Shown in pieces: positions 5,346-25,404 of a DNA stretch of 26,545 nt; position 1 is the first letter of the stretch; each line of letters starts with the position of its first letter. Below the pieces are notes generated by a model. The model worked only from the letters and a program-made list of their open reading frames with translations. It did no database searches and had not been told where the DNA came from. The position numbers and the translations under genes are program-made. The stretch comes from a virus (lineage: Duplodnaviria; Caudoviricetes), in the IMG/VR virus record IMGVR_UViG_3300037657_000297, positions 1 to 26,545 of that record; one strand, 5' to 3'.

Positions 5346-5448
5346 GACAGAGGAAAACAATTACTTGTCTTCGTTTTCCCGCGATAGTCCCTCATGGCGA
5401 GGGGGACGGACCATAACGCCTTGCATTCCGCGAGGCGTTATTTTTTTT
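5346..5448 (+). ncRNA. Candidate ~100 nt small RNA convergent with the portal-MuF gene
   Basis: Bounded by the promoter above and an intrinsic terminator; possible pseudoknot plus hairpin; no credible ORF. Confidence 0.55.
5413..5448 (+). terminator. Rho-independent terminator
   Basis: ATAACGCCTTGC-ATTCC-GCGAGGCGTTAT followed by a T run; overlaps the stop codon of the minus-strand gene. Confidence 0.7.
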
Positions 5449-8314
5449 GCCTCACCATTATTCCGGGTGTTTCTTTAGCCCGGAAACTGAACGTCCATCC
5501 TGAATAACCCGGATACTCGCGCGTACTGTTTATCACAACGTTCCAGTATCCTCCTTCTTCGACTTTTAGGATGTAACCCTTTCCGAGTTTGACCATTCCG
5601 CTTTTTTTCTTTATTCCGGGAGCTTCCTGCAGGCTGATAACCACCGCGTCAGGGTTTTTCAACGCTTGCTCGAACAGATTGAGATATTTCAACCTCGCGA
5701 GGTTCTTCAGATACTGCGCGGGCTTATCGACCGGAATCACGTGGTCGATCAGCCGGTCGGTATCAATATAAATCGTGTTCCCGAACTTGTCCGTAATCTT
5801 ACCGTCCGGGATTATTTCTTTCAGGTATGCCTTCGCCTTCGCGGAAACATCCTCCGGTTTCCCTTTAACATCAAAACCCGCTTTTTTTTCAAGGACGTCT
5901 TTCAGTTCTGTTTTCAAATCGACTTTTTCGTCGATCAGGTTTTTCCATCCCGAGGTATCCTTATTCTGCTTGATCTCCAGCCATTTCCCGAAATCCTTCC
6001 CGGCGTTATTTTCGAACCCTTCCGGAGTCTTCAGAAGCAGTTTTCCCGAAGTATCGAAATTATTCAGCTTCGGCGCGACGAGTGTCTCGAAATCCGGGTT
6101 GTACGAATTATTAGCGACAACCTCCTTCATATCCGGCGCGCCCTGCGGAAGTTTTTCTGGGTCGATTCCTTTGTTCTTCAGGTATTCCGGTGAAAGACTC
6201 CGCACTGTGCACCGGCACCCGAACGCGTCCTTTGGGGTATGTTCGTCCCAGAACGGGTCGTCGTAACGGCGGATCATCCCATGCATCGCCGCGTGCTCCG
6301 GGCGCGTCCCTTTATCCATCGTAGCAATTCTCTGCCAATAGGGGGCGATATCGACGTCTTTTCGGAGCTGCGCCATTTTCCCGGCCATCTGCGCAGAACG
6401 CATATTTTCCCAGTAAACCTGCTTGAGCCGCGCTTCCGGCAAAACGCCTTTTTCCATCCATCCCGACACCCATTCTTTATAAGGGATATTCCCTTCTTTC
6501 GCGTCTATCAGGGATTTCAATAAATCCGCAATCGTCTCTTCCTTCAGGTCGCCGGTTACCGTAAACGCGAAGTTCCGGTACTTTTCGCCGAGCGCGAGAA
6601 AATCCGCTTTCGGCATCGGAACCTTCATCTTCAGGAAATCGACCGCCGTCTGAGGGGGTATTTTACCCTTCATATCCGCGAGCGAGACGACCTCTTGGCT
6701 GGCGTAGTTTTGCGCATCATTCCATCGCGCCTGCCCTGAGCGAAGCCGAAGGGCCCAAATCCGCCCTAAAATATCGCCTGCAAGTAGCGCGTTCCCGAAC
6801 GACACGGATGTCGAAGAGTCGGCCGGTTCTGCATCGACCGCAATATCGAGCGAATCCGCTATCCGTTGCATCGCCTCGTCATATTCCGAAGCGCCTTCAA
6901 GTGCGGCGTGAATTGCGTTTACAAACGGCTCGAATAGTTTGCCCTTCTTCGTTTCACCTTCAATCGCGGCATCGAACGCTTTGTCTTCCGCTTCAACAGT
7001 CGCGATTTCAATATCCGTTAGTACTATCACCTTGACATCATCCCGAACTAGTCGAGGGATGTTTTTTTTTTCGACCCCCACGGATGGGGGAAGTCCCGCG
7101 GGGGCATGGACGCCGGAGAGCGGGACATCCTTCTCTGCGAACGGAAGTTCCGGCGTAGTTTCTTCCTTGATGGCGAAATCGTCGCCTTCCTTCATCCGGT
7201 ACTTATCCGCAAGGTATTTCGGAGTAGGCCGCCATCCGATATTATAGAGGAGAGCGTCGCGCTGGGCGCGGTCGGCGGCTACATCCTCTTCCTCGAAATA
7301 CTTTAACGATGGAAATTTTTCGACGTTATAATTCAGGTTCACGAGGCTTCTTGCGAGACGATTGAATGTATTTGCAACCATCTTTTTATCACCCTCGACT
7401 ATTTCCCCGCGAACTTGGAAGTGTACCGTGCCCAGAGCCTGCGAGCCGACATTACCCTGCTCGGTCGTGAGCGTCTGTCCGAGTATCGCTTTCGAGACCT
7501 CGGCATTACTCCACCCGACCATTTGGCTGAACGCGAGAGAGGAACCCGCTTTATTCACATCCACCGTCATCAGCTGATCGCCGGGTTGCCCCTGAAACAC
7601 ACCGGTCGCATCCTCGACCATCCGGTCGAGCATATCGAGCATTTTATCGATCTTTTCCTGATTCTGCTCCTGTGTCATAATGTACATCAATGCGCCGCCG
7701 TACTTCTCGAGGAAGTTCATCCAGAATTTGACGCCGCCTTTCTTGAACGAGACCGGCCAAAACACGCGCGCGAGTTTCCGTTCGCCGTAAGGGTTCCTGT
7801 AGGTAGCCCGGTGACGGACGAGTTCGATCCTATCCATCTCGACCAATTCACCGTCAATGCCTTTTCCCTTCGAAAGAAACCGTAATTGATTCTGGTTGTC
7901 GAACACAAACCATTCGGGCGGTCGTCCTTCTATAGCAGAGTAATAAATCCGGTTGCCGTCGGTGGTGGTAACCTTTTCCAGAACGCTCAACCCGTAATAG
8001 ACGGCTTCGAGTATTTCGCGGGTCAGGGTTTCGGTATCGATATTCGCGAATACGTCCTTCACGAAATCGAGCGCGCGTTTGTCTTCTCGGCGCGAACTGT
8101 CAACCTGCCAATCCCATTCGCACGAAAGCACGCCCGCCTCGCGGCTGGTCATACAGCTATCGACATGCGCGTCGAACGTCAATTGACGGTAGATCGAAAC
8201 ATCATACCCCTTCGCCTGAAGAACGCTATCCGGGTCGGGCAGACGGGTCAAATATCCCGCCATTTCCTGCCATGACCGCTCGCGTGTGTAAATAGAACCC
8301 ATATTTTTTGCCAT
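5438..8314 (-). CDS. Portal (Mu gp29/DUF935) - MuF head morphogenesis - putative PBECR-type nuclease fusion
   Basis: N-terminal ~400 aa: DAHVDSC..R, YYGLSVLE, FLEKYG, ISK-like VSKAILGQTLTT..GSQALGTVH. Middle: AFTVTG, PYWQ..ATMD..TRPEH, DDPFW..FGCRCTV. C-terminal: H...RLKYL..LKNPD...GY...GWTF. Start ATG 8314 (8302 alternative). Confidence 0.85.
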   Translation of the reverse strand: MAKNMGSIYTRERSWQEMAGYLTRLPDPDSVLQAKGYDVSIYRQLTFDAHVDSCMTSREAGVLSCEWDWQVDSSRREDKRALDFVKDVFANIDTETLTREILEAVYYGLSVLEKVTTTDGNRIYYSAIEGRPPEWFVFDNQNQLRFLSKGKGIDGELVEMDRIELVRHRATYRNPYGERKLARVFWPVSFKKGGVKFWMNFLEKYGGALMYIMTQEQNQEKIDKMLDMLDRMVEDATGVFQGQPGDQLMTVDVNKAGSSLAFSQMVGWSNAEVSKAILGQTLTTEQGNVGSQALGTVHFQVRGEIVEGDKKMVANTFNRLARSLVNLNYNVEKFPSLKYFEEEDVAADRAQRDALLYNIGWRPTPKYLADKYRMKEGDDFAIKEETTPELPFAEKDVPLSGVHAPAGLPPSVGVEKKNIPRLVRDDVKVIVLTDIEIATVEAEDKAFDAAIEGETKKGKLFEPFVNAIHAALEGASEYDEAMQRIADSLDIAVDAEPADSSTSVSFGNALLAGDILGRIWALRLRSGQARWNDAQNYASQEVVSLADMKGKIPPQTAVDFLKMKVPMPKADFLALGEKYRNFAFTVTGDLKEETIADLLKSLIDAKEGNIPYKEWVSGWMEKGVLPEARLKQVYWENMRSAQMAGKMAQLRKDVDIAPYWQRIATMDKGTRPEHAAMHGMIRRYDDPFWDEHTPKDAFGCRCTVRSLSPEYLKNKGIDPEKLPQGAPDMKEVVANNSYNPDFETLVAPKLNNFDTSGKLLLKTPEGFENNAGKDFGKWLEIKQNKDTSGWKNLIDEKVDLKTELKDVLEKKAGFDVKGKPEDVSAKAKAYLKEIIPDGKITDKFGNTIYIDTDRLIDHVIPVDKPAQYLKNLARLKYLNLFEQALKNPDAVVISLQEAPGIKKKSGMVKLGKGYILKVEEGGYWNVVINSTREYPGYSGWTFSFRAKETPGIMVRQKK

Positions 8315-8544
8315 TTTTACCCCGTTTTTGACTCCCACAAGGGGAGAAATTCCGCGATTCCACGGATGGAAAGGAGCGGAACACCATATTTTTTAAGTTT
8401 TTCCTTCAATATCTTATATTTCTATATCCGGTAAACACTTGAAGCACTCTTTAATAGCCTATAACACCGTTTATTATTACAACCCCTGTATAGAGTTATA
8501 TTATCATGTTTTCCTAATATCATTCAACGTCGTTCGATTCGGAA

Positions 8545-17021: not shown

Positions 17022-17107
17022 TGCCTGCGGCGGGATTCGAACCCGCGACGCGTCGCCGTTATCCCTATTAAGGGAGGCGACTGTTCTATCCGCTGAACTA
17101 CACAAGC
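17022..17107 (-). tRNA. tRNA-like gene with a 20 nt anticodon-loop region; anticodon unassignable
   Basis: GCTTGTG TA GTTC-AGCGGATA-GAAC A GTCGC-[CTCCCTTAATAGGGATAACG]-GCGAC GCGTC GCGGG-TTCGAAT-CCCGC CGCAGGC A; no encoded CCA. Confidence 0.8.
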
Positions 17108-17113
17108 TCCTAA

Positions 17114-17299
17114 CTATCTTAACAAACTCGCGTCCCCGGTCTCGACGGCTCGGATGAATTTCGAGAGCTTCAATTCGTACATCTCCATACGCCGCGCCCT
17201 GTCCCTCATCGTTTCGGCGGAATAACCGGCTCGTCCCGCCGGACTCCGGTGGTTCTTCTTCCACGCGGCGGTATTCCTGATCGCCCGCTTTTTACTCAT
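17114..17299 (-). CDS. Small basic hypothetical protein
   Basis: ATG 17299 with GGGGGAG SD overlapping the gam stop. Confidence 0.5.
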   Translation of the reverse strand: MSKKRAIRNTAAWKKNHRSPAGRAGYSAETMRDRARRMEMYELKLSKFIRAVETGDASLLR

Positions 17300-17888
17300 G
17301 CGCTCCCCCACGGTCACCGAGCCTGTCTTCCGCGTATGCGGGAGGCGAAGCCGAGGTGTCCGCTTCTTGCTCGATATCGTTATCGAGTTCTTTTTCCATC
17401 GCCGCGATAATCTTGTCTATCTCGCCGTCGGTCGCGCTGATCACCAGCTCGTCCACGTCCGCTTTGATCTCGACACCGATAGCCTTCAGGTCGGCGGCGG
17501 TCAGAGATTTCAACGCGTCCTTGATGACCGATTCCTTCGTCTGAATCATCAGCTTCGCTTGTTCCTTAGAAAACTTCTTCCTGATCAGCGCGATAGTCTG
17601 TTCTTGAGACAGGATGATCGTCTCGCCGGTCTTTTTCCGGTACCCGATTTTGATACCGTGCATGACCTGCGTCTTGGGTTTGTCGAAGAGTTCCTTGTTC
17701 GCCGCGATAACGCCCGCGAGTTCGGATTTCTTATCCGCCATTTTGGCGAAAAGACGCTTGATTTTCGGGACAAATCCGCGCTTCACCGCTTCGATTTCGC
17801 CGTTCATCGCCGCCAGTTCGAACGCGAGAGCCTCCCGCGCGTCGGCGTAATCCTTGACCGGCTTGTCGAATACTTCGATATGATTCAT
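17292..17888 (-). CDS. gam: Mu Gam-like host-nuclease inhibitor
   Basis: Helical N-terminus, NKELF.KPKT..HGIKIGYRK, I.TKESVIKDALK, L.AIGV.I; Mu early-region position. Confidence 0.8.
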   Translation of the reverse strand: MNHIEVFDKPVKDYADAREALAFELAAMNGEIEAVKRGFVPKIKRLFAKMADKKSELAGVIAANKELFDKPKTQVMHGIKIGYRKKTGETIILSQEQTIALIRKKFSKEQAKLMIQTKESVIKDALKSLTAADLKAIGVEIKADVDELVISATDGEIDKIIAAMEKELDNDIEQEADTSASPPAYAEDRLGDRGGAHE

Positions 17889-17981
17889 TCGTTCCTCCTG
17901 ACCCCCACGGATGGGGGGAATGCCGAGATTCGACAGCTTGCCTTCACGTGAAGCGTGGAGGGGATTTCGAAGCCGGCCGAT

Positions 17982-18058
17982 TTGCCTATCTCATCAGCGA
18001 GCGGAGGCTATCCCGCCCGGACGCCCGGACATCGAGTAGCCGTTAGGCGTACCGGGAT
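17982..18058 (-). ncRNA. Type II hammerhead-ribozyme-like element with variant core
   Basis: Stem III ACGCC/GGCGU, GUC triplet, stem I CGGGCGG/CCGCUCG, CUGAUGAG, loop I GCCU can pair with 3' AGGC; GAAA replaced by GGUA. Confidence 0.5.
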
Positions 18059-18073
18059 GCCTCTTTAGGAGTG

Positions 18074-18275: not shown

Positions 18276-19214
18276 TCAGATTATCATGTGCTCGGCAGCT
18301 TTCTTAATCACCGCCGGATCGATTTCGCAATCGTTCCTGATCGCTGTTCTCTGCGCCAGCAGCATCAGCTTCGTCAGGTATCTCGCGTTGTGTTTGGACG
18401 CCGAGTGGAACGTCTCGATCACGGCGGGTTTCGCGTTCGGAATGACGGTTTCGACAATCGCCTGAGTATCGCCGATATGCAGCTCGTCTAATTCGATATA
18501 TTCCATGCGGCTCGTGAAATACTTGTGCTCGGTGCGCATCTTCATGATTTTTCCCTTCATATCGAGGGAACCGACGAGTACGACCGGAACCTTCGCGTGG
18601 TCGAAAATGCTTCGCAGAATATCGAGGCCCTTAACTTTGAGGTAGTCGGCTTCGTCCACGATGATCATACGATCCGTGCCGTGGAGAATTTCGATGATAC
18701 CCTTGAAAAGCATATCTTTCCTGGTATGCCCGTCCATCCCGATGGTTTTCGCGATATCGTAGAGGATGGTCGTTTCGCCGTACGTGACATTCAGCTCGAT
18801 CAGGATTGTCGCGGCGAATCTCCGTTTGAACTCCGTGAGAGTGATCGTTTTACCAGCTCCGTTGTCCCCGCCGATCACCAGCAGCCTACCGTCCACCTGC
18901 GCGAGCGCGAGGTTGTGATCGATTGTTTTCGAGACGCTTGTCTCGACATAGGTCGGTTTTTTCAGCATCGAACGGAATCGTTCCATTTCCTGTTCGATCA
19001 CCGCGAGAACCTTTTTCAGGTTCTCCTCGACATTTCCGGTATAATTACCCTTGAGGAGAGCGGATACTACCGCCGTACTGATACCGGTCTTCCGGCAGAG
19101 TTCCGCCTGACTCATCCCGGTATCGGCAAGGAATTTCTTGATGTCCCGTACCGCCGATTCGTTACGGTCTTCCGGCTGGTCAGGCTCATTCATCAGATCA
19201 TCGATTTCACTCAT
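18276..19214 (-). CDS. MuB-like transposition AAA+ ATPase with N-terminal HTH
   Basis: MSQAELCRKTGIS...LKGNYTG; Walker A GDNGAGKT; Walker B MIIVDEAD; PVVLVG; FTSR. Confidence 0.92.
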   Translation of the reverse strand: MSEIDDLMNEPDQPEDRNESAVRDIKKFLADTGMSQAELCRKTGISTAVVSALLKGNYTGNVEENLKKVLAVIEQEMERFRSMLKKPTYVETSVSKTIDHNLALAQVDGRLLVIGGDNGAGKTITLTEFKRRFAATILIELNVTYGETTILYDIAKTIGMDGHTRKDMLFKGIIEILHGTDRMIIVDEADYLKVKGLDILRSIFDHAKVPVVLVGSLDMKGKIMKMRTEHKYFTSRMEYIELDELHIGDTQAIVETVIPNAKPAVIETFHSASKHNARYLTKLMLLAQRTAIRNDCEIDPAVIKKAAEHMII

Positions 19215-19324: not shown

Positions 19325-21532
19325 CTAATCGATATCCAGCGGTCCTTTCAGTTTTTTCTGTACGTCCTGTTTCGCTTCCAATTCCTCGCGTACCGGTTCG
19401 GCGATGATGATGTTCCGTTTCGCCGAGCGTTTCCCTTCCAGTCCCATTACCTGCGATTTCAACTTCCTGATCTGCCGTTCCTCGCGTTGATTCGCTTTGT
19501 ACGCTTCTATCGTTTTTACATCCGGCTCGTCCGCGAACCGCGACCGCTCTTTCCGGTCGGCGCTAAATAGGAATTGCCCGTCCCGGTCGAATACGAGGAT
19601 TTTCGTGATGTCGTCAGCGTCTACCGCTATCTCGACCTTCTGTTTCTGGATCAGCGCGGTTTTCATCTCCGCGTCGCGGTAGTAATATCCGAGATATTGG
19701 ATACCATTGCGCCGGACCGTCTTGACATACCGCGGCATAAGCGCGATCCTGAGTTTCTCAGGTTCGATCACGCGAAAGTCTTCGGCCTCCTCCGCCCATC
19801 GTTCGTTCGGCGTCCGACCGTCCATCCCGTGGCCGGTATGCACCTTATCGTTATACCATGTCATAAATTCCTTTTTAAACCTATCCCGGACTTCGTCCAT
19901 CGTCGGCACGAGTTCGGGATGCGCTTTCGCTTTTTTCATCAGCTCCGTCAGAATTTCCGGCTTGTCGTCGATATTCCGTCCGCAATAGGTATCGAACATC
20001 TTAGAGAAGTACTCGTCGACCGTGCGCCAGAAACGCTCGATCTGTTTAGCTTTAGCGTTATAGGGGATAGCAAAATGCGGTTTGATACCGAGGCGCGAAT
20101 AATATCCCTCAAGCTCGTTCTCGAAATCTCCTCGCGACTGCTTGTTTTTGTACGCCTTTCCGTTGTCGATATGCACGTTCAGCGGCAGTATATACTCGTT
20201 GTCGGCTATCGAACGGTAAAGCGCTTTCGCGACCAGTTCCGAACTCTCGGTCTCGGCGACCTCGAATCCCATCAGTTTTCGGCAGGCCTTGTCCATAAAC
20301 GCGTCGAGCGTCGGCCGGACGAAATTCCCGTCGGCGTTCCGGCAGAACAGATTGAGGGTATGCCCGTCGGATGTGAACCAATCCCCGGCCAGCATCGCTT
20401 CGCTCGAATAATCTATTTCCATGTGCGGCATAACCTTATCATCGAACGGTTTTTCGCCTTCGCGGAACGCGACCTTCAGCATGTACGGAATCCGGGCGAT
20501 GAAACGGCAGATTGTCGGGTAGCTCGCTCCGCTCGCCTGCGCCTGAAGTCCGTTCGACATTAGGTATTCGATCATCAATTTATATACATGTTTGTTGTTC
20601 AGCCGGTTCTGGCCGGTCGATATGAGGCCGGCCTTTTTTCCTTCGTTATCCGCCGAACCGGTCAGATAGATATTTTTCACGGCTTTCTGCTCGATTTCCG
20701 TCAATTTCGTCTGTCCACGGCGTTTCCCGTAGAGAGGTATCAGCGCGGCCGTCTCGTCTTCGTGCCGCCGCCGGGCGTCGTACACCGTTTTCATCCAACG
20801 CTGAACCGAACGAAAATCACGTTTTCCGAGACGGGAAAGGAGTTCCTTGTCCACCTGCCCTTTATTGTACCGGGCTACATATTGCTCGATCAGTTTAGTC
20901 CGGTTTTTCCAGACGTCGCTCCATGCGGAGAGTGATTGCAGGTATTTTTCGATATAATCGATCAGTTTCATTCTATCGAGGGCTTTTTCACGGATTTTTT
21001 CAGGAAAAGAAACCCACCGGCGCGCGTCCGGGCTGGCCGGTAGAAAGGATTCGAGGATATTGCGCTTGTTGAACTCGGCGTCTTCCAATTCCGCTTCCCA
21101 CCGCAGAATCCGTCTGATCGACCTCTTTCCGAGGCGTCCGAGTATTTCCCCGTCAATCCCGCCGGAATTATAGGCGTTTTCGAATGACTCGAGAACGTCC
21201 GCCGAGTCCGCATGCTCCCGGCAATACCGTCGTTTTTTCTCGACGAGAGTCAGGATGTCTTCCGCGTGCCGGATCGACTCAGGCGGAAAGTATTTTCCGC
21301 TGATAATCCCTTCCTGCGTGGAAATACTCCGTGCGGTTTTTATCTTCGCCGCGATGTCCACCGGCATGGTTTCGAGCGGGTATACGCGGAAGTTTCCGCC
21401 GCGGCCCCGGCCTTTTACCGCGGCGGACGGAATTCCGAGCGCACCGGCGCGTTTGACCGCCCCGGGACGCGTGATTCCCCAGACCGCCGCGAGTTCAGCC
21501 GTGGATGCGAAGTTTTTCGTTTCTATCTTCAT
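19325..21532 (-). CDS. MuA-like DDE transposase
   Basis: Start moved to ATG 21532; N-terminal Mu-type HTH (GRGG...YPLE); SDGH, HIDNGKAY, AKAKQIERFW; YN..H...GRTP..W; RRNGI; adjacent to MuB. Confidence 0.93.
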   Translation of the reverse strand: MKIETKNFASTAELAAVWGITRPGAVKRAGALGIPSAAVKGRGRGGNFRVYPLETMPVDIAAKIKTARSISTQEGIISGKYFPPESIRHAEDILTLVEKKRRYCREHADSADVLESFENAYNSGGIDGEILGRLGKRSIRRILRWEAELEDAEFNKRNILESFLPASPDARRWVSFPEKIREKALDRMKLIDYIEKYLQSLSAWSDVWKNRTKLIEQYVARYNKGQVDKELLSRLGKRDFRSVQRWMKTVYDARRRHEDETAALIPLYGKRRGQTKLTEIEQKAVKNIYLTGSADNEGKKAGLISTGQNRLNNKHVYKLMIEYLMSNGLQAQASGASYPTICRFIARIPYMLKVAFREGEKPFDDKVMPHMEIDYSSEAMLAGDWFTSDGHTLNLFCRNADGNFVRPTLDAFMDKACRKLMGFEVAETESSELVAKALYRSIADNEYILPLNVHIDNGKAYKNKQSRGDFENELEGYYSRLGIKPHFAIPYNAKAKQIERFWRTVDEYFSKMFDTYCGRNIDDKPEILTELMKKAKAHPELVPTMDEVRDRFKKEFMTWYNDKVHTGHGMDGRTPNERWAEEAEDFRVIEPEKLRIALMPRYVKTVRRNGIQYLGYYYRDAEMKTALIQKQKVEIAVDADDITKILVFDRDGQFLFSADRKERSRFADEPDVKTIEAYKANQREERQIRKLKSQVMGLEGKRSAKRNIIIAEPVREELEAKQDVQKKLKGPLDID

Positions 21533-21631
21533 ATACCGTCCTAATATAAGCCGGGGACGGGGGACCAATCCCGCCCCCAACTACAGAAGATGATGATCGA
21601 TGACTCACGTGAGAATCATCGATCTGGTCAT

Positions 21632-21701
21632 TTACGGGGGCGGGATTCGAACCCGCACATACCGGATAAGTCCGGCAAGTCTACCGTTGCTTCACCCCGT
21701 G
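21632..21701 (-). tRNA. Initiator-tRNA-like gene with a 4 nt anticodon loop
   Basis: CACGGGG TG AAGC-AACGGTA-GACTT G CCGGA-CTTA-TCCGG TATGT GCGGG-TTCGAAT-CCCGC CCCCGTA A; C1:A72 mismatch; no CCA. Confidence 0.75.
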
Positions 21702-21709
21702 TATATTCG

Positions 21710-22036
21710 TTACGCCACCGGTTGCAGTTCCGGGTTCTCTACCGGGACGGTATCATCGTCGATATCCGCAATCGCGCCGATATGGATACCCATCAGCGAG
21801 TTCAGATCATCGATCTTCGCGCGAGCCACGGTTATCGATGAGATTTTTACCATGAAGCCCTTTTTATTGTGCGTGTTCATATACCGCACGTAATGTTCGA
21901 GGGCTAACCCCTTGGTCTCTCCGACCGCGTACCATGTCGATTTTTCATCCTTACACGTCTCGACGATCTCGTACAGGTTTCCGTCTTTCGCGAGCTCCGA
22001 CGCTTCCTGTCTGGTCAAATCAGCGAAATGCGTCAT
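21710..22036 (-). CDS. Hypothetical protein
   Basis: ATG 22036 with AGGAGG SD, ATGA overlap. Confidence 0.7.
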   Translation of the reverse strand: MTHFADLTRQEASELAKDGNLYEIVETCKDEKSTWYAVGETKGLALEHYVRYMNTHNKKGFMVKISSITVARAKIDDLNSLMGIHIGAIADIDDDTVPVENPELQPVA

Positions 22037-22990: not shown

Positions 22991-23035
22991 TTTACATTGT
23001 AAAGACATTGTAAATCTATAATCGGGTAATGTCAA
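22991..23035 (-). promoter_or_regulatory. Consensus sigma70 promoter with overlapping operator-like repeats
   Basis: TTGACA(23035-23030)-N17-TACAAT(23012-23007); ACATTGTAAA at 22994 and 23005; palindrome TTTACA-T-TGTAAA at 22991-23003. Confidence 0.8.
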
Positions 23036-23087
23036 TACAAATCTGAAATATTTTTAATTTTTTCGCCTTTTTCTCCGATGATACCGC

Positions 23088-23273
23088 ATGGATATAAGAG
23101 AAATCAAAGAATTACTGGCAAACAAAGATGTTCTCATAAATATGCGTATCAATTCAAGGTTACTTAACCTTTTTGACGATACCCTAAAATCAGATTTGAA
23201 ATTCAAATCCCGTTCGGATTTCGTCAATGATGCCATCCTTCGGTATCTCGAAGAAAAGGGCGTGTTCAAGTGA
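23088..23273 (+). CDS. Ribbon-helix-helix (CopG/Arc-like) regulator
   Basis: INMRINSRLL.LFD...SRSDFVNDAILRYLE; divergent from the promoter above. Confidence 0.8.
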   Translation: MDIREIKELLANKDVLINMRINSRLLNLFDDTLKSDLKFKSRSDFVNDAILRYLEEKGVFK

Positions 23274-23381
23274 TCCTTGGTACTATTACCGACCCCCATG
23301 GATGGGGGGAGTGCCGACAAGAGCCACGGATGGCGAGTCGGCCGCGTTATTCCCCGAACGATTCGATATCCGGGAGCGGGA

Positions 23382-25370: not shown

Positions 25371-25404
25371 TCGTTATTTTATAACGAAAATATAAATATG
25401 TCAA
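25371..25404 (-). promoter_or_regulatory. Early promoter with palindromic operator candidate
   Basis: TTGACA(25404-25399)-N17-TAAAAT(25381-25376); TCGTTAT-TTT-ATAACGA covers the -10. Confidence 0.75.

Follow-up and report, generated by a model that had tools for sequence, protein, structure and literature searches.

A tRNA-like body without a 7-nt anticodon loop ahead of the transposase gene of a Mu-like phage: a putative cut site for host RNase P

Directly ahead of the transposase gene of a Mu-like phage lies a tRNA-like body (element 2) in which the acceptor stem and T arm of a tRNA are kept and the place of the anticodon is taken by a loop of 4 nt. Such a body is a real, selected feature, and its function can be inferred from the parts that are retained: by analogy with the t-elements of plant mitochondria, it would be a cut site for host RNase P, a putative role towards which the balance of the evidence leans slightly.

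Element 2 and the early operon of the phage

The DNA analysed here (the window) is a whole virus record of 26.5 kb. The phage is of the Mu-like type, with the repressor on the plus strand and the early genes, A, B, gam, gemA, mor, terminase, portal and head genes on the minus strand, and its sequence is present in three groundwater runs of 2020 (X1, X2 and X3), which are possibly from one campaign and of which X1 may have supplied the record. The nearest named homologue of its transposase is that of Thermospira aquatica (35%) and the closest prophage (L089) sits in a Brevinematales MAG, which together make a spirochaete the likely host. One ORF of 966 aa (window 5438-8338) fuses a portal protein, a Mu F minor head domain and a PBECR2 nuclease-like domain. 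The following features are needed for the argument:

23007..23035, minus strand: sigma-70-like promoter match, 11 of 12 (a consensus match only)
21710..22036, minus strand: 108-aa gene of unassigned family, with its stop codon 8 nt ahead of element 2 and a 44% identical orthologue in L089
21632..21701, minus strand: element 2, tRNA-like body (from sequence, Rfam, folds and a same-slot body in L089)
21701-21695 with 21639-21633, minus strand: acceptor of element 2, 6 pairs plus C1·A72
21692-21677, minus strand: D arm of element 2, with GG in the D loop; U8 is present
21675-21662, minus strand: anticodon arm of element 2, CCGGA-CUUA-UCCGG, with the 4-nt loop at 21670-21667
21656-21640, minus strand: T arm of element 2, 5-bp T stem and consensus loop
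21632, minus strand: discriminator A73 of element 2; CCA is not encoded
19325..21532, minus strand: Mu-like transposase A (PHROG 310, E 4e-86; Pfam Mu-transpos_C and DDE_2)
18276..19214, minus strand: Mu B-like transposition ATPase (PHROG 296, E 4e-60)
17292..17888, minus strand: Gam-like end-protection protein (profile matches)
17022..17107, minus strand: element 1, Arg-like tRNA body (Rfam, ARAGORN and fold; orthologue in L089)

A preliminary description of this DNA had ascribed to element 2 the C1·A72 mismatch, the arm CCGGA-CUUA-UCCGG and a T arm shared with the element at 17022 (element 1), all of which are indeed present. The identity of the two T arms holds and its length does not, as the shared stretch is 18 nt instead of 17 nt; it is also of a common type, its first 10 nt being found in 3 of 20 host tRNA regions. 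The derivation of the loop as CUCAUAA minus 3 nt has to be dropped: one 3-nt deletion cannot give CUUA, for which two deletions, or a deletion and a substitution, are required.

Against the Rfam tRNA family (RF00005) element 2 scores 42.9 bits (cut-off 29; E 3.8e-6), and in a model built from 30 ordinary tRNAs 36.7 bits; an ARAGORN run on the window did not call it. The acceptor, D, anticodon and T arms of the cloverleaf can all be drawn, with a D stem that is weak in the energy model (it is absent when the body is folded as isolated RNA, at a z of -2.29). A decoding tRNA would have a 7-nt loop, U33 and a purine at 37, and element 2 fails on this point, its loop being the 4-nt CUUA. The body begins 8 nt past the stop codon of the 108-aa gene, and from its end to the likely ATG of A there are 99 nt. 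In the X2 contig, which is from another study, window positions 21402-21741 are reproduced with 0 differences, so that element 2 is not an assembly slip (run X3 has no coverage of it).

Initiator tRNA-fMet is marked by an unpaired C1·A72 and a purine11-pyrimidine24 pair. Element 2 has both, the 11-24 pair depending on the D-stem register chosen, and shares C1·A72, A73, G9, A11-U24 and a G-rich acceptor with the host fMet and with near-intact fMet-like tRNAs in two Mu-like contigs (L234 and L262), where these lie 0.6-1.0 kb before A and have a similar D arm. It differs from the initiator in its 4-nt loop, in the lack of CAU (it has no anticodon) and in having two of the three consecutive basal G-C pairs of the anticodon stem (the pairs are G-C, G-C and A-U). 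Compared with 31 of the 45 tRNAs of Brevinematales genome G001, its best score is with fMet (62), followed by Leu(TAA) (59). Because fMet-like tRNAs occupy a similar slot in L234 and L262, it is probable, judging from the sequences, that element 2 descends from a captured tRNA-fMet. The fMet-like tRNAs lie within L234 5936-6107 and L262 6041-6113 (one has C33, one an anticodon-stem mismatch), and in L234 a Leu-like body with an abnormal arm immediately precedes the fMet-like tRNA.

tRNA top halves in related Mu-like loci

A survey of Mu-like loci for anticodon-less tRNAs, as proposed in the preliminary description, was made on Mu-type transposase loci from spirochaete genomes, which were scanned by a script and a covariance model for bodies with an acceptor and a T arm. 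The main set comprised 53 loci, the window and 52 spirochaete-genome loci (812 kb in all), and yielded 21 bodies. One is an ordinary tRNA-Leu in antisense orientation; the other 20, in 17 loci, lack a 7-nt anticodon loop. An earlier count of 17 bodies in 15 loci had used a loose 'canonical loop' rule; L137, L143 and element 1 were recounted, as they fold without a 7-nt loop, and L214 and L216 are the same element. The tRNAs of L039, L059, L067 and L104 were taken as ordinary and left out because of their normal anticodons, L079 and one match in L109 were judged to be chance, and L145, the only locus returned by a Gam query, was rejected as an independent relative, being 99.99% identical to L089.

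All 20 abnormal bodies lie on the transposase strand, 11 of them 0.17-2.5 kb before A and 9 of them 3.4-4.8 kb after the start of A. They share the acceptor, a 5-bp T stem and a 7-nt T loop (an apparent conservation that is inflated, since the scanner requires paired acceptor and T stems), with a middle part of 8-71 nt in which the loop at the anticodon position measures 3-17 nt, where an arm is present at all; the 4-nt caps stressed earlier are thus no family trait. Nor is the initiator identity that had been read from the 5' end: C1·A72 is confined to element 2, 12/20 bodies start with G1 and the discriminator varies. U8 is present in 9/20 and an encoded CCA in 0/20. Minihelices of 40-47 nt are found among the bodies in L141, L105 and, twice, L171. 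Minihelices of 40-43 nt, consisting only of acceptor and T arm, are at L141 5853-5892, L302 619-658 and L171 5976-6018 and 7740-7782, the L171 pair being identical-stem copies in a multi-copy prophage of G433.

Element 1, element 2, the element-1 orthologue of L089 and the body of L108 start 6-8 nt past a stop codon, and the bodies of L135 and L137 follow gam. Two copies in one phage occur in the window, L089, L171 and L299. The two bodies were originally described as bracketing the A-B-gam block, which is true in the window, yet only 2 of the 17 loci in all show it; eight loci have a body only before A and seven only after B (some loci are incomplete). In 36 of the 53 loci there is no body, and no abnormal body was found in 79 viral loci that were scanned, from which it follows that the body is dispensable. 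Among 85 further dereplicated loci, mostly of unknown host, such bodies are found on the sense strand in L234, L302 and L309, and an fMet half in antisense orientation in L090.

In 20 host stretches (400 kb), 6 ordinary tRNAs and 0 mimics were found, where ~10 mimics would be expected at the prophage density, and shuffled sequence gave 0-1 matches per 0.65-1.5 Mb. Other routes to relatives brought little: a T-arm pattern search added L167, in an unrelated context; a transposase-only query brought up no related locus among the viral and the genome contigs; the exact 24-nt element-2 pattern had no match in viral contigs; the repeat pattern had 0 matches in metagenome contigs and occurred in two viral records without tRNA-like bodies (with an isolated T-arm hairpin only); and BLASTN against phages and plasmids returned just ordinary tRNAs or short T-arm matches.

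The closest comparison is that with L089. Its body in the element-2 slot (5623-5694), 112 nt past the 44% identical orthologue of the upstream gene, is a 72-nt cloverleaf with a 7-bp acceptor and a 5-nt loop at the anticodon position; it is below Rfam detection and scores 24.2 bits (E 9e-5) in the model from ordinary tRNAs. By eye, its T stem shows two changes from that of the window, one of them two-sided and the other one-sided. L089 also has, in the interval that separates this body from the upstream gene, a very stable 113-nt branched RNA fold (5510-5622, z -8.8) that is absent from the window. In the window, 6 nt separate element 1 from the stop of a 61-aa gene, and the orthologue of the element in L089 (10421-10499) lies downstream of the same gene; 4 of their 12 top-half pairs show two-sided changes and 1 a one-sided change, with 0 broken. 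ARAGORN labels element 1 Leu(TAA). The statement that both bodies of the window are capped by 4-nt loops needs refining for element 1, which has an extended arm with an internal bulge and a UAAU cap and thus more than a shortened loop. The identical T arms of the window do not recur in L089, whose two bodies differ from each other there and neither of which has C1·A72. Capture of different tRNAs could also yield the L089 differences, in which case both slots would have lost the normal loop twice. A second element-1 allele in run X1 (window 17031-17180) has 13 differences. Three fall within element 1, where one turns U·G into C-G and another breaks an anticodon-arm pair; the other 10 are in or beside the 61-aa gene.

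Over 9 homologous body pairs, 92 base pairs of the top half are unchanged, 6 have two-sided and 7 one-sided changes and 3 are broken, i.e. 13/16 changed pairs still pair; as MAFFT gave no structural alignment of the bodies, these changes were counted informally, and the scanner, by requiring paired stems, biases the tally. All 20 bodies are on the coding strand, the 400 kb of host sequence contain none and L089 shows compensatory changes, by which the earlier suggestion of selection for shape, and not for decoding, is supported.

The same observations bear on the possibility that the bodies are decaying pseudo-tRNAs, i.e. captured tRNA genes that erode and of which the top half is left by chance or by ascertainment. 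The near-intact fMet-like tRNAs of L234 and L262 do show capture at the slot before A, presence is patchy, the X1 allele of element 1 breaks an anticodon-arm pair and 3/16 changed pairs are broken. However, erosion does not readily account for the strand bias, the clean minihelices, the two-sided changes and the lack of enrichment in host DNA, nor for the fact that L089 keeps both slots with abnormal arms. The opposite remnants (D and anticodon arms without a T arm) gave one poor antisense match in 138 loci, in a search that detects 12/31 real tRNAs. Decay is thus distinctly improbable. That the bodies are attachment-site remnants of a tRNA-targeting integrative element is highly improbable: such remnants retain the T arm and the acceptor 3' strand, and the antisense fMet 3' half of L090 is possibly one, but in the bodies the 5' acceptor strand is retained as well and co-varies. 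The bodies also lie mid-operon and not at ends, and neither a tyrosine nor a serine integrase was found among the 38 ORFs scanned in the window (the contig is partial).

Processing by host RNase P and known systems

In plant mitochondria, t-elements are tRNA-like folds with a conserved T arm at whose ends RNase P or RNase Z cuts to give the ends of mRNAs, as described by Forner et al. 2007 (PMC1920247). What characterises a t-element is also found in element 2, namely an acceptor stacked on the T stem, a consensus T loop and the same strand as the flanking genes, and like the plant elements described there it is a tRNA-like fold with a T arm within what would be a longer transcript; it differs in lying in a phage early operon, in facing a bacterial, RNA-based RNase P and in being known from its sequence alone. 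According to PMC11143913, a hairpin that consists of the acceptor stem, T stem and T loop is cut by E. coli RNase P RNA at the usual position, and mRNAs, phage RNAs and tRNA-like structures are named among RNase P substrates (PMC4919922). The part kept in the bodies is therefore the part that RNase P reads, which favours a cut signal.

Element 2 would be carried on the early-operon transcript, for which the promoter match at 23007..23035 is the likely source (transcription through the element being suggested by that match); a second sigma-70-like match is at 25404-25376. Host RNase P would then read the acceptor stem and T arm and cut the 5' end near 21701, after which the tRNA 3'-processing nuclease may trim near 21632, and the early message would be split directly ahead of the transposase gene. 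Upstream, the promoter-like sites at 25404 and 23035 are separated by an AT-rich insertion (window 23054-23320) that contains a plus-strand ORF; similar hairpins (repeat I20) occur in the leaders downstream of both sites.

All 5 genomes tested from hosts of related prophages encode type A RNase P RNA, and RNase Z is over the cut-off in 2/5 of these hosts and below it in G001. The missing CCA is normal for G001, since 0/32 scanned tRNA 3' ends encode it (one of the 32 being a spurious match). With C1·A72 and without a 3' CCA, element 2 may be a weak RNase P substrate. The preliminary description had proposed signals that excise the transposition mRNA. Of this, the processing signal is retained as the best-fitting, putative function, and the excision claims too much, with 2/17 loci flanked on both sides.

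Its second proposal, anti-defence decoys, is a poor fit for anticodon nucleases, as the anticodon arm is the part that is not kept. In a broader form, the product of importance would be the excised, perhaps CCA-tailed body, which could bind and distract tRNA-targeting defence enzymes or toxins of the host by way of the acceptor end or elbow that these recognise. Early expression beside gam, up to two copies per phage and the commonness of tRNA-cutting defences described in PMC12445682 would agree with this, and excision by RNase P could be its first step. On the other hand, the anticodon arm, the target of anticodon nucleases and P2-OLD in the same source, is least conserved and sometimes missing, the first pair and discriminator vary freely, so that no aminoacylation identity is kept, and the bodies of the window have no promoter match of their own. 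With both anticodon arm and acceptor identity dropped, a released decoy is rather unlikely.

Other systems resemble the proposed cut site in part. The mascRNA and menRNA of MALAT1 and MEN-beta are described as tRNA-like bodies cut by RNase P and RNase Z, which gives a defined end and a small RNA (PMC4919922); these are at the 3' end of mammalian non-coding RNAs, whereas element 2 lies between phage protein genes. The C4 antisense RNA of phages P1 and P7 is listed as an RNase P substrate in the same paper. Element 2 has no match to the C4 or CI families in Rfam. The CI RNA of P4 is likewise a phage RNA that is freed from an operon transcript by host RNase P; C4 and CI differ from element 2 in acting by antisense pairing in immunity control and in not being tRNA-derived. 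YrlA Y RNA, a tRNA mimic without a decoding anticodon that also occurs in phages, is circularly permuted and has a Ro60-binding stem. The arm order of element 2 is canonical, without such a stem, its comparison with RF02553 (YrlA) gave no match at E<=1, and no TROVE family member is among the 38 ORFs of the window. Some tRNAs carry an HDV-like (theta) ribozyme as a trailer directly 3'; a theta-ribozyme trailer was rejected for element 2, as no ribozyme family was found at E<=1 and the trailer consists of two simple hairpins.

Closest in setting are the hammerhead and twister ribozymes of Mu-like phages, which likewise occupy intergenic sites in Mu-like early operons and are proposed transcript cutters (PMC3088659, PMC10085705); they are self-cleaving, whereas element 2 would borrow a host enzyme. 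Tandem hammerheads flanking prophage genes cleave in vitro and, as put forward by Perreault et al. (PMC3088659), may cut long transcripts into shorter mRNAs, and the strongest ribozyme associations given in PMC10085705 (2023) are with Mu-like phage genes, for a reason described there as unknown. In the related operons, type II hammerheads score over the Rfam cut-off after B in four loci, one of which (L089) also carries both tRNA-like bodies:

L089 9589-9659: hammerhead (Rfam), ending about 10 nt before the start of the gam orthologue
L091 8188-8268: hammerhead (Rfam)
L093 2852-2921: hammerhead (Rfam)
L102 12681-12749: hammerhead (Rfam)

A further hammerhead in L085 (14271-14344) is below the cut-off (29.4 vs 37), and L132, L225 and L303, found only by our own pattern, were left uncounted because that pattern is weak (0-3 matches per shuffle). 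The window itself has no ribozyme family at E<=1 in Rfam, hammerhead included. Its structured spacer before gam (17890-18070) contains hammerhead-like words with no valid fold and is possibly a decayed ribozyme at the slot of the L089 hammerhead; a hammerhead-like reading of 18000-17930 was unsupported by folding and Rfam.

In the open literature covered (PMC5737381 in its main text), no report of such elements in Mu-like phage operons was found; motif tables in the supplements of PMC5737381 could hold a similar motif. The working principle is already known from organelles and mammalian non-coding RNAs. If tRNA top halves cut by RNase P are indeed present here, they would be a second, chemically unrelated module, which would imply that the selected trait is the cutting of the early transcript. 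For annotation, ARAGORN misses element 2 and mislabels element 1 as tRNA-Leu, and the Rfam gathering cut-off missed bodies of relatives; phage tRNA counts therefore both include and omit such mimics.

The spacer to the transposase gene and a separate hairpin motif

Between element 2 and A, the following features bear on what a cut, or an uncut fold, would do:

21595..21624, minus strand: 12-bp hairpin in the spacer (the fold of 21632-21530 has a z of -5.15)
21550..21581, minus strand: G/C-rich hairpin H3, followed by a short U-rich run
21532..21543, minus strand: Shine-Dalgarno-like site and likely ATG of A (no other in-frame ATG occurs in 21580-21401, and a purine-rich site precedes it, which makes it the presumed start)

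The 5' strand of H3 (21578-21567) is a perfect 12-nt complement of the T-loop/T-stem/acceptor strand of element 2 (21647-21636), by which the element-2 fold and H3 are mutually exclusive. This complement lies 54 nt downstream of the body and was found by searching with the 3' 20 nt of the body within 200 nt on either side; 0/200 shuffles reach 12 nt. The tRNA fold and the 12-bp alternative are within about 1.3 kcal/mol of each other in an energy model that leaves out tertiary contacts. In transcript context the acceptor and T stems of element 2 have a predicted probability of 0.01-0.23, the alternative being favoured owing to the 12-nt competitor, and as H3 is synthesised the predicted T-stem probability goes from 0.87 to 0 and back to 0.8. 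If the tRNA fold rarely forms, as this model would have it, the competitor counts against a cut signal.

The competitor would also suit an uncut cis-acting fold (an attenuator, a translation switch or a nuclease roadblock), in which the tRNA fold would free H3, as a weak terminator or as a control of the ribosome-binding site, and the 12-bp alternative would block it. The perfect complement, the near-equal energies and the swings in T-stem probability all agree with this, as does the U-rich run after H3. But the 12 other bodies tested have a complement of at most 8 nt (6 nt for the L089 orthologue), H3 is not listed by the terminator scan, and the 3' strand of H3 resembles the 3' strand of the body, so that a local duplication could give the match without selection. 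An uncut fold is therefore quite unlikely. L089 has a hairpin of different sequence at a place similar to that of H3.

For the putative RNase P cut, the spacer suggests a consequence. Nine nt within the 108-aa gene (21753-21745) are complementary to the ribosome-binding region of the transposase gene (an anti-SD), and the predicted unpaired fraction of the SD rises from 0.18-0.32 with upstream sequence to 0.37-0.68 for a transcript from 21701 and 0.67-0.73 for one from 21631. A cut at element 2 would here remove the upstream sequence that pairs with the ribosome-binding site and so tie translation to processing, as predicted by these folds. By eye, the anti-SD pairing is not matched at the start region of L089, and with no competitor at the 12 other bodies this translation coupling is a post hoc, single-locus lead from modelling; ribosomes that translate the upstream gene would open the anti-SD as well. 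In its widest form, the proposal is that spirochaete Mu-like phages use tRNA top-half mimics and hammerheads as interchangeable cutters that divide up the early operon, and that in this phage the mimic doubles as a switch, its fold being in competition with the 12-bp helix, so that a cut by RNase P frees the ribosome-binding site and the tRNA-processing activity of the host thereby gates transposition, which would be a speculative and, as a whole, unlikely combination.

Apart from these bodies, the window contains eleven hairpins that have a 4-bp stem and one common loop of 6 nt, of the AUCCRU type when read on the coding strand; shuffles would lead one to expect 0.15. Their plus-strand starts are at 2177, 2205, 6800, 7076, 8358, 11331, 13433, 16969, 16997, 17903 and 23294. 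One of them follows element 1 in the window, and in L089 another follows element 2. L089/L109 and L002/L003 have 7-8 such hairpins each, all on one strand and with many different stems. The hairpins would seem to form a motif of their own, in RNA or ssDNA, that is so far undescribed. The loop is similar to a CsrA site when it is read on the non-coding strand, and several of the hairpins immediately precede ribosome-binding sites.
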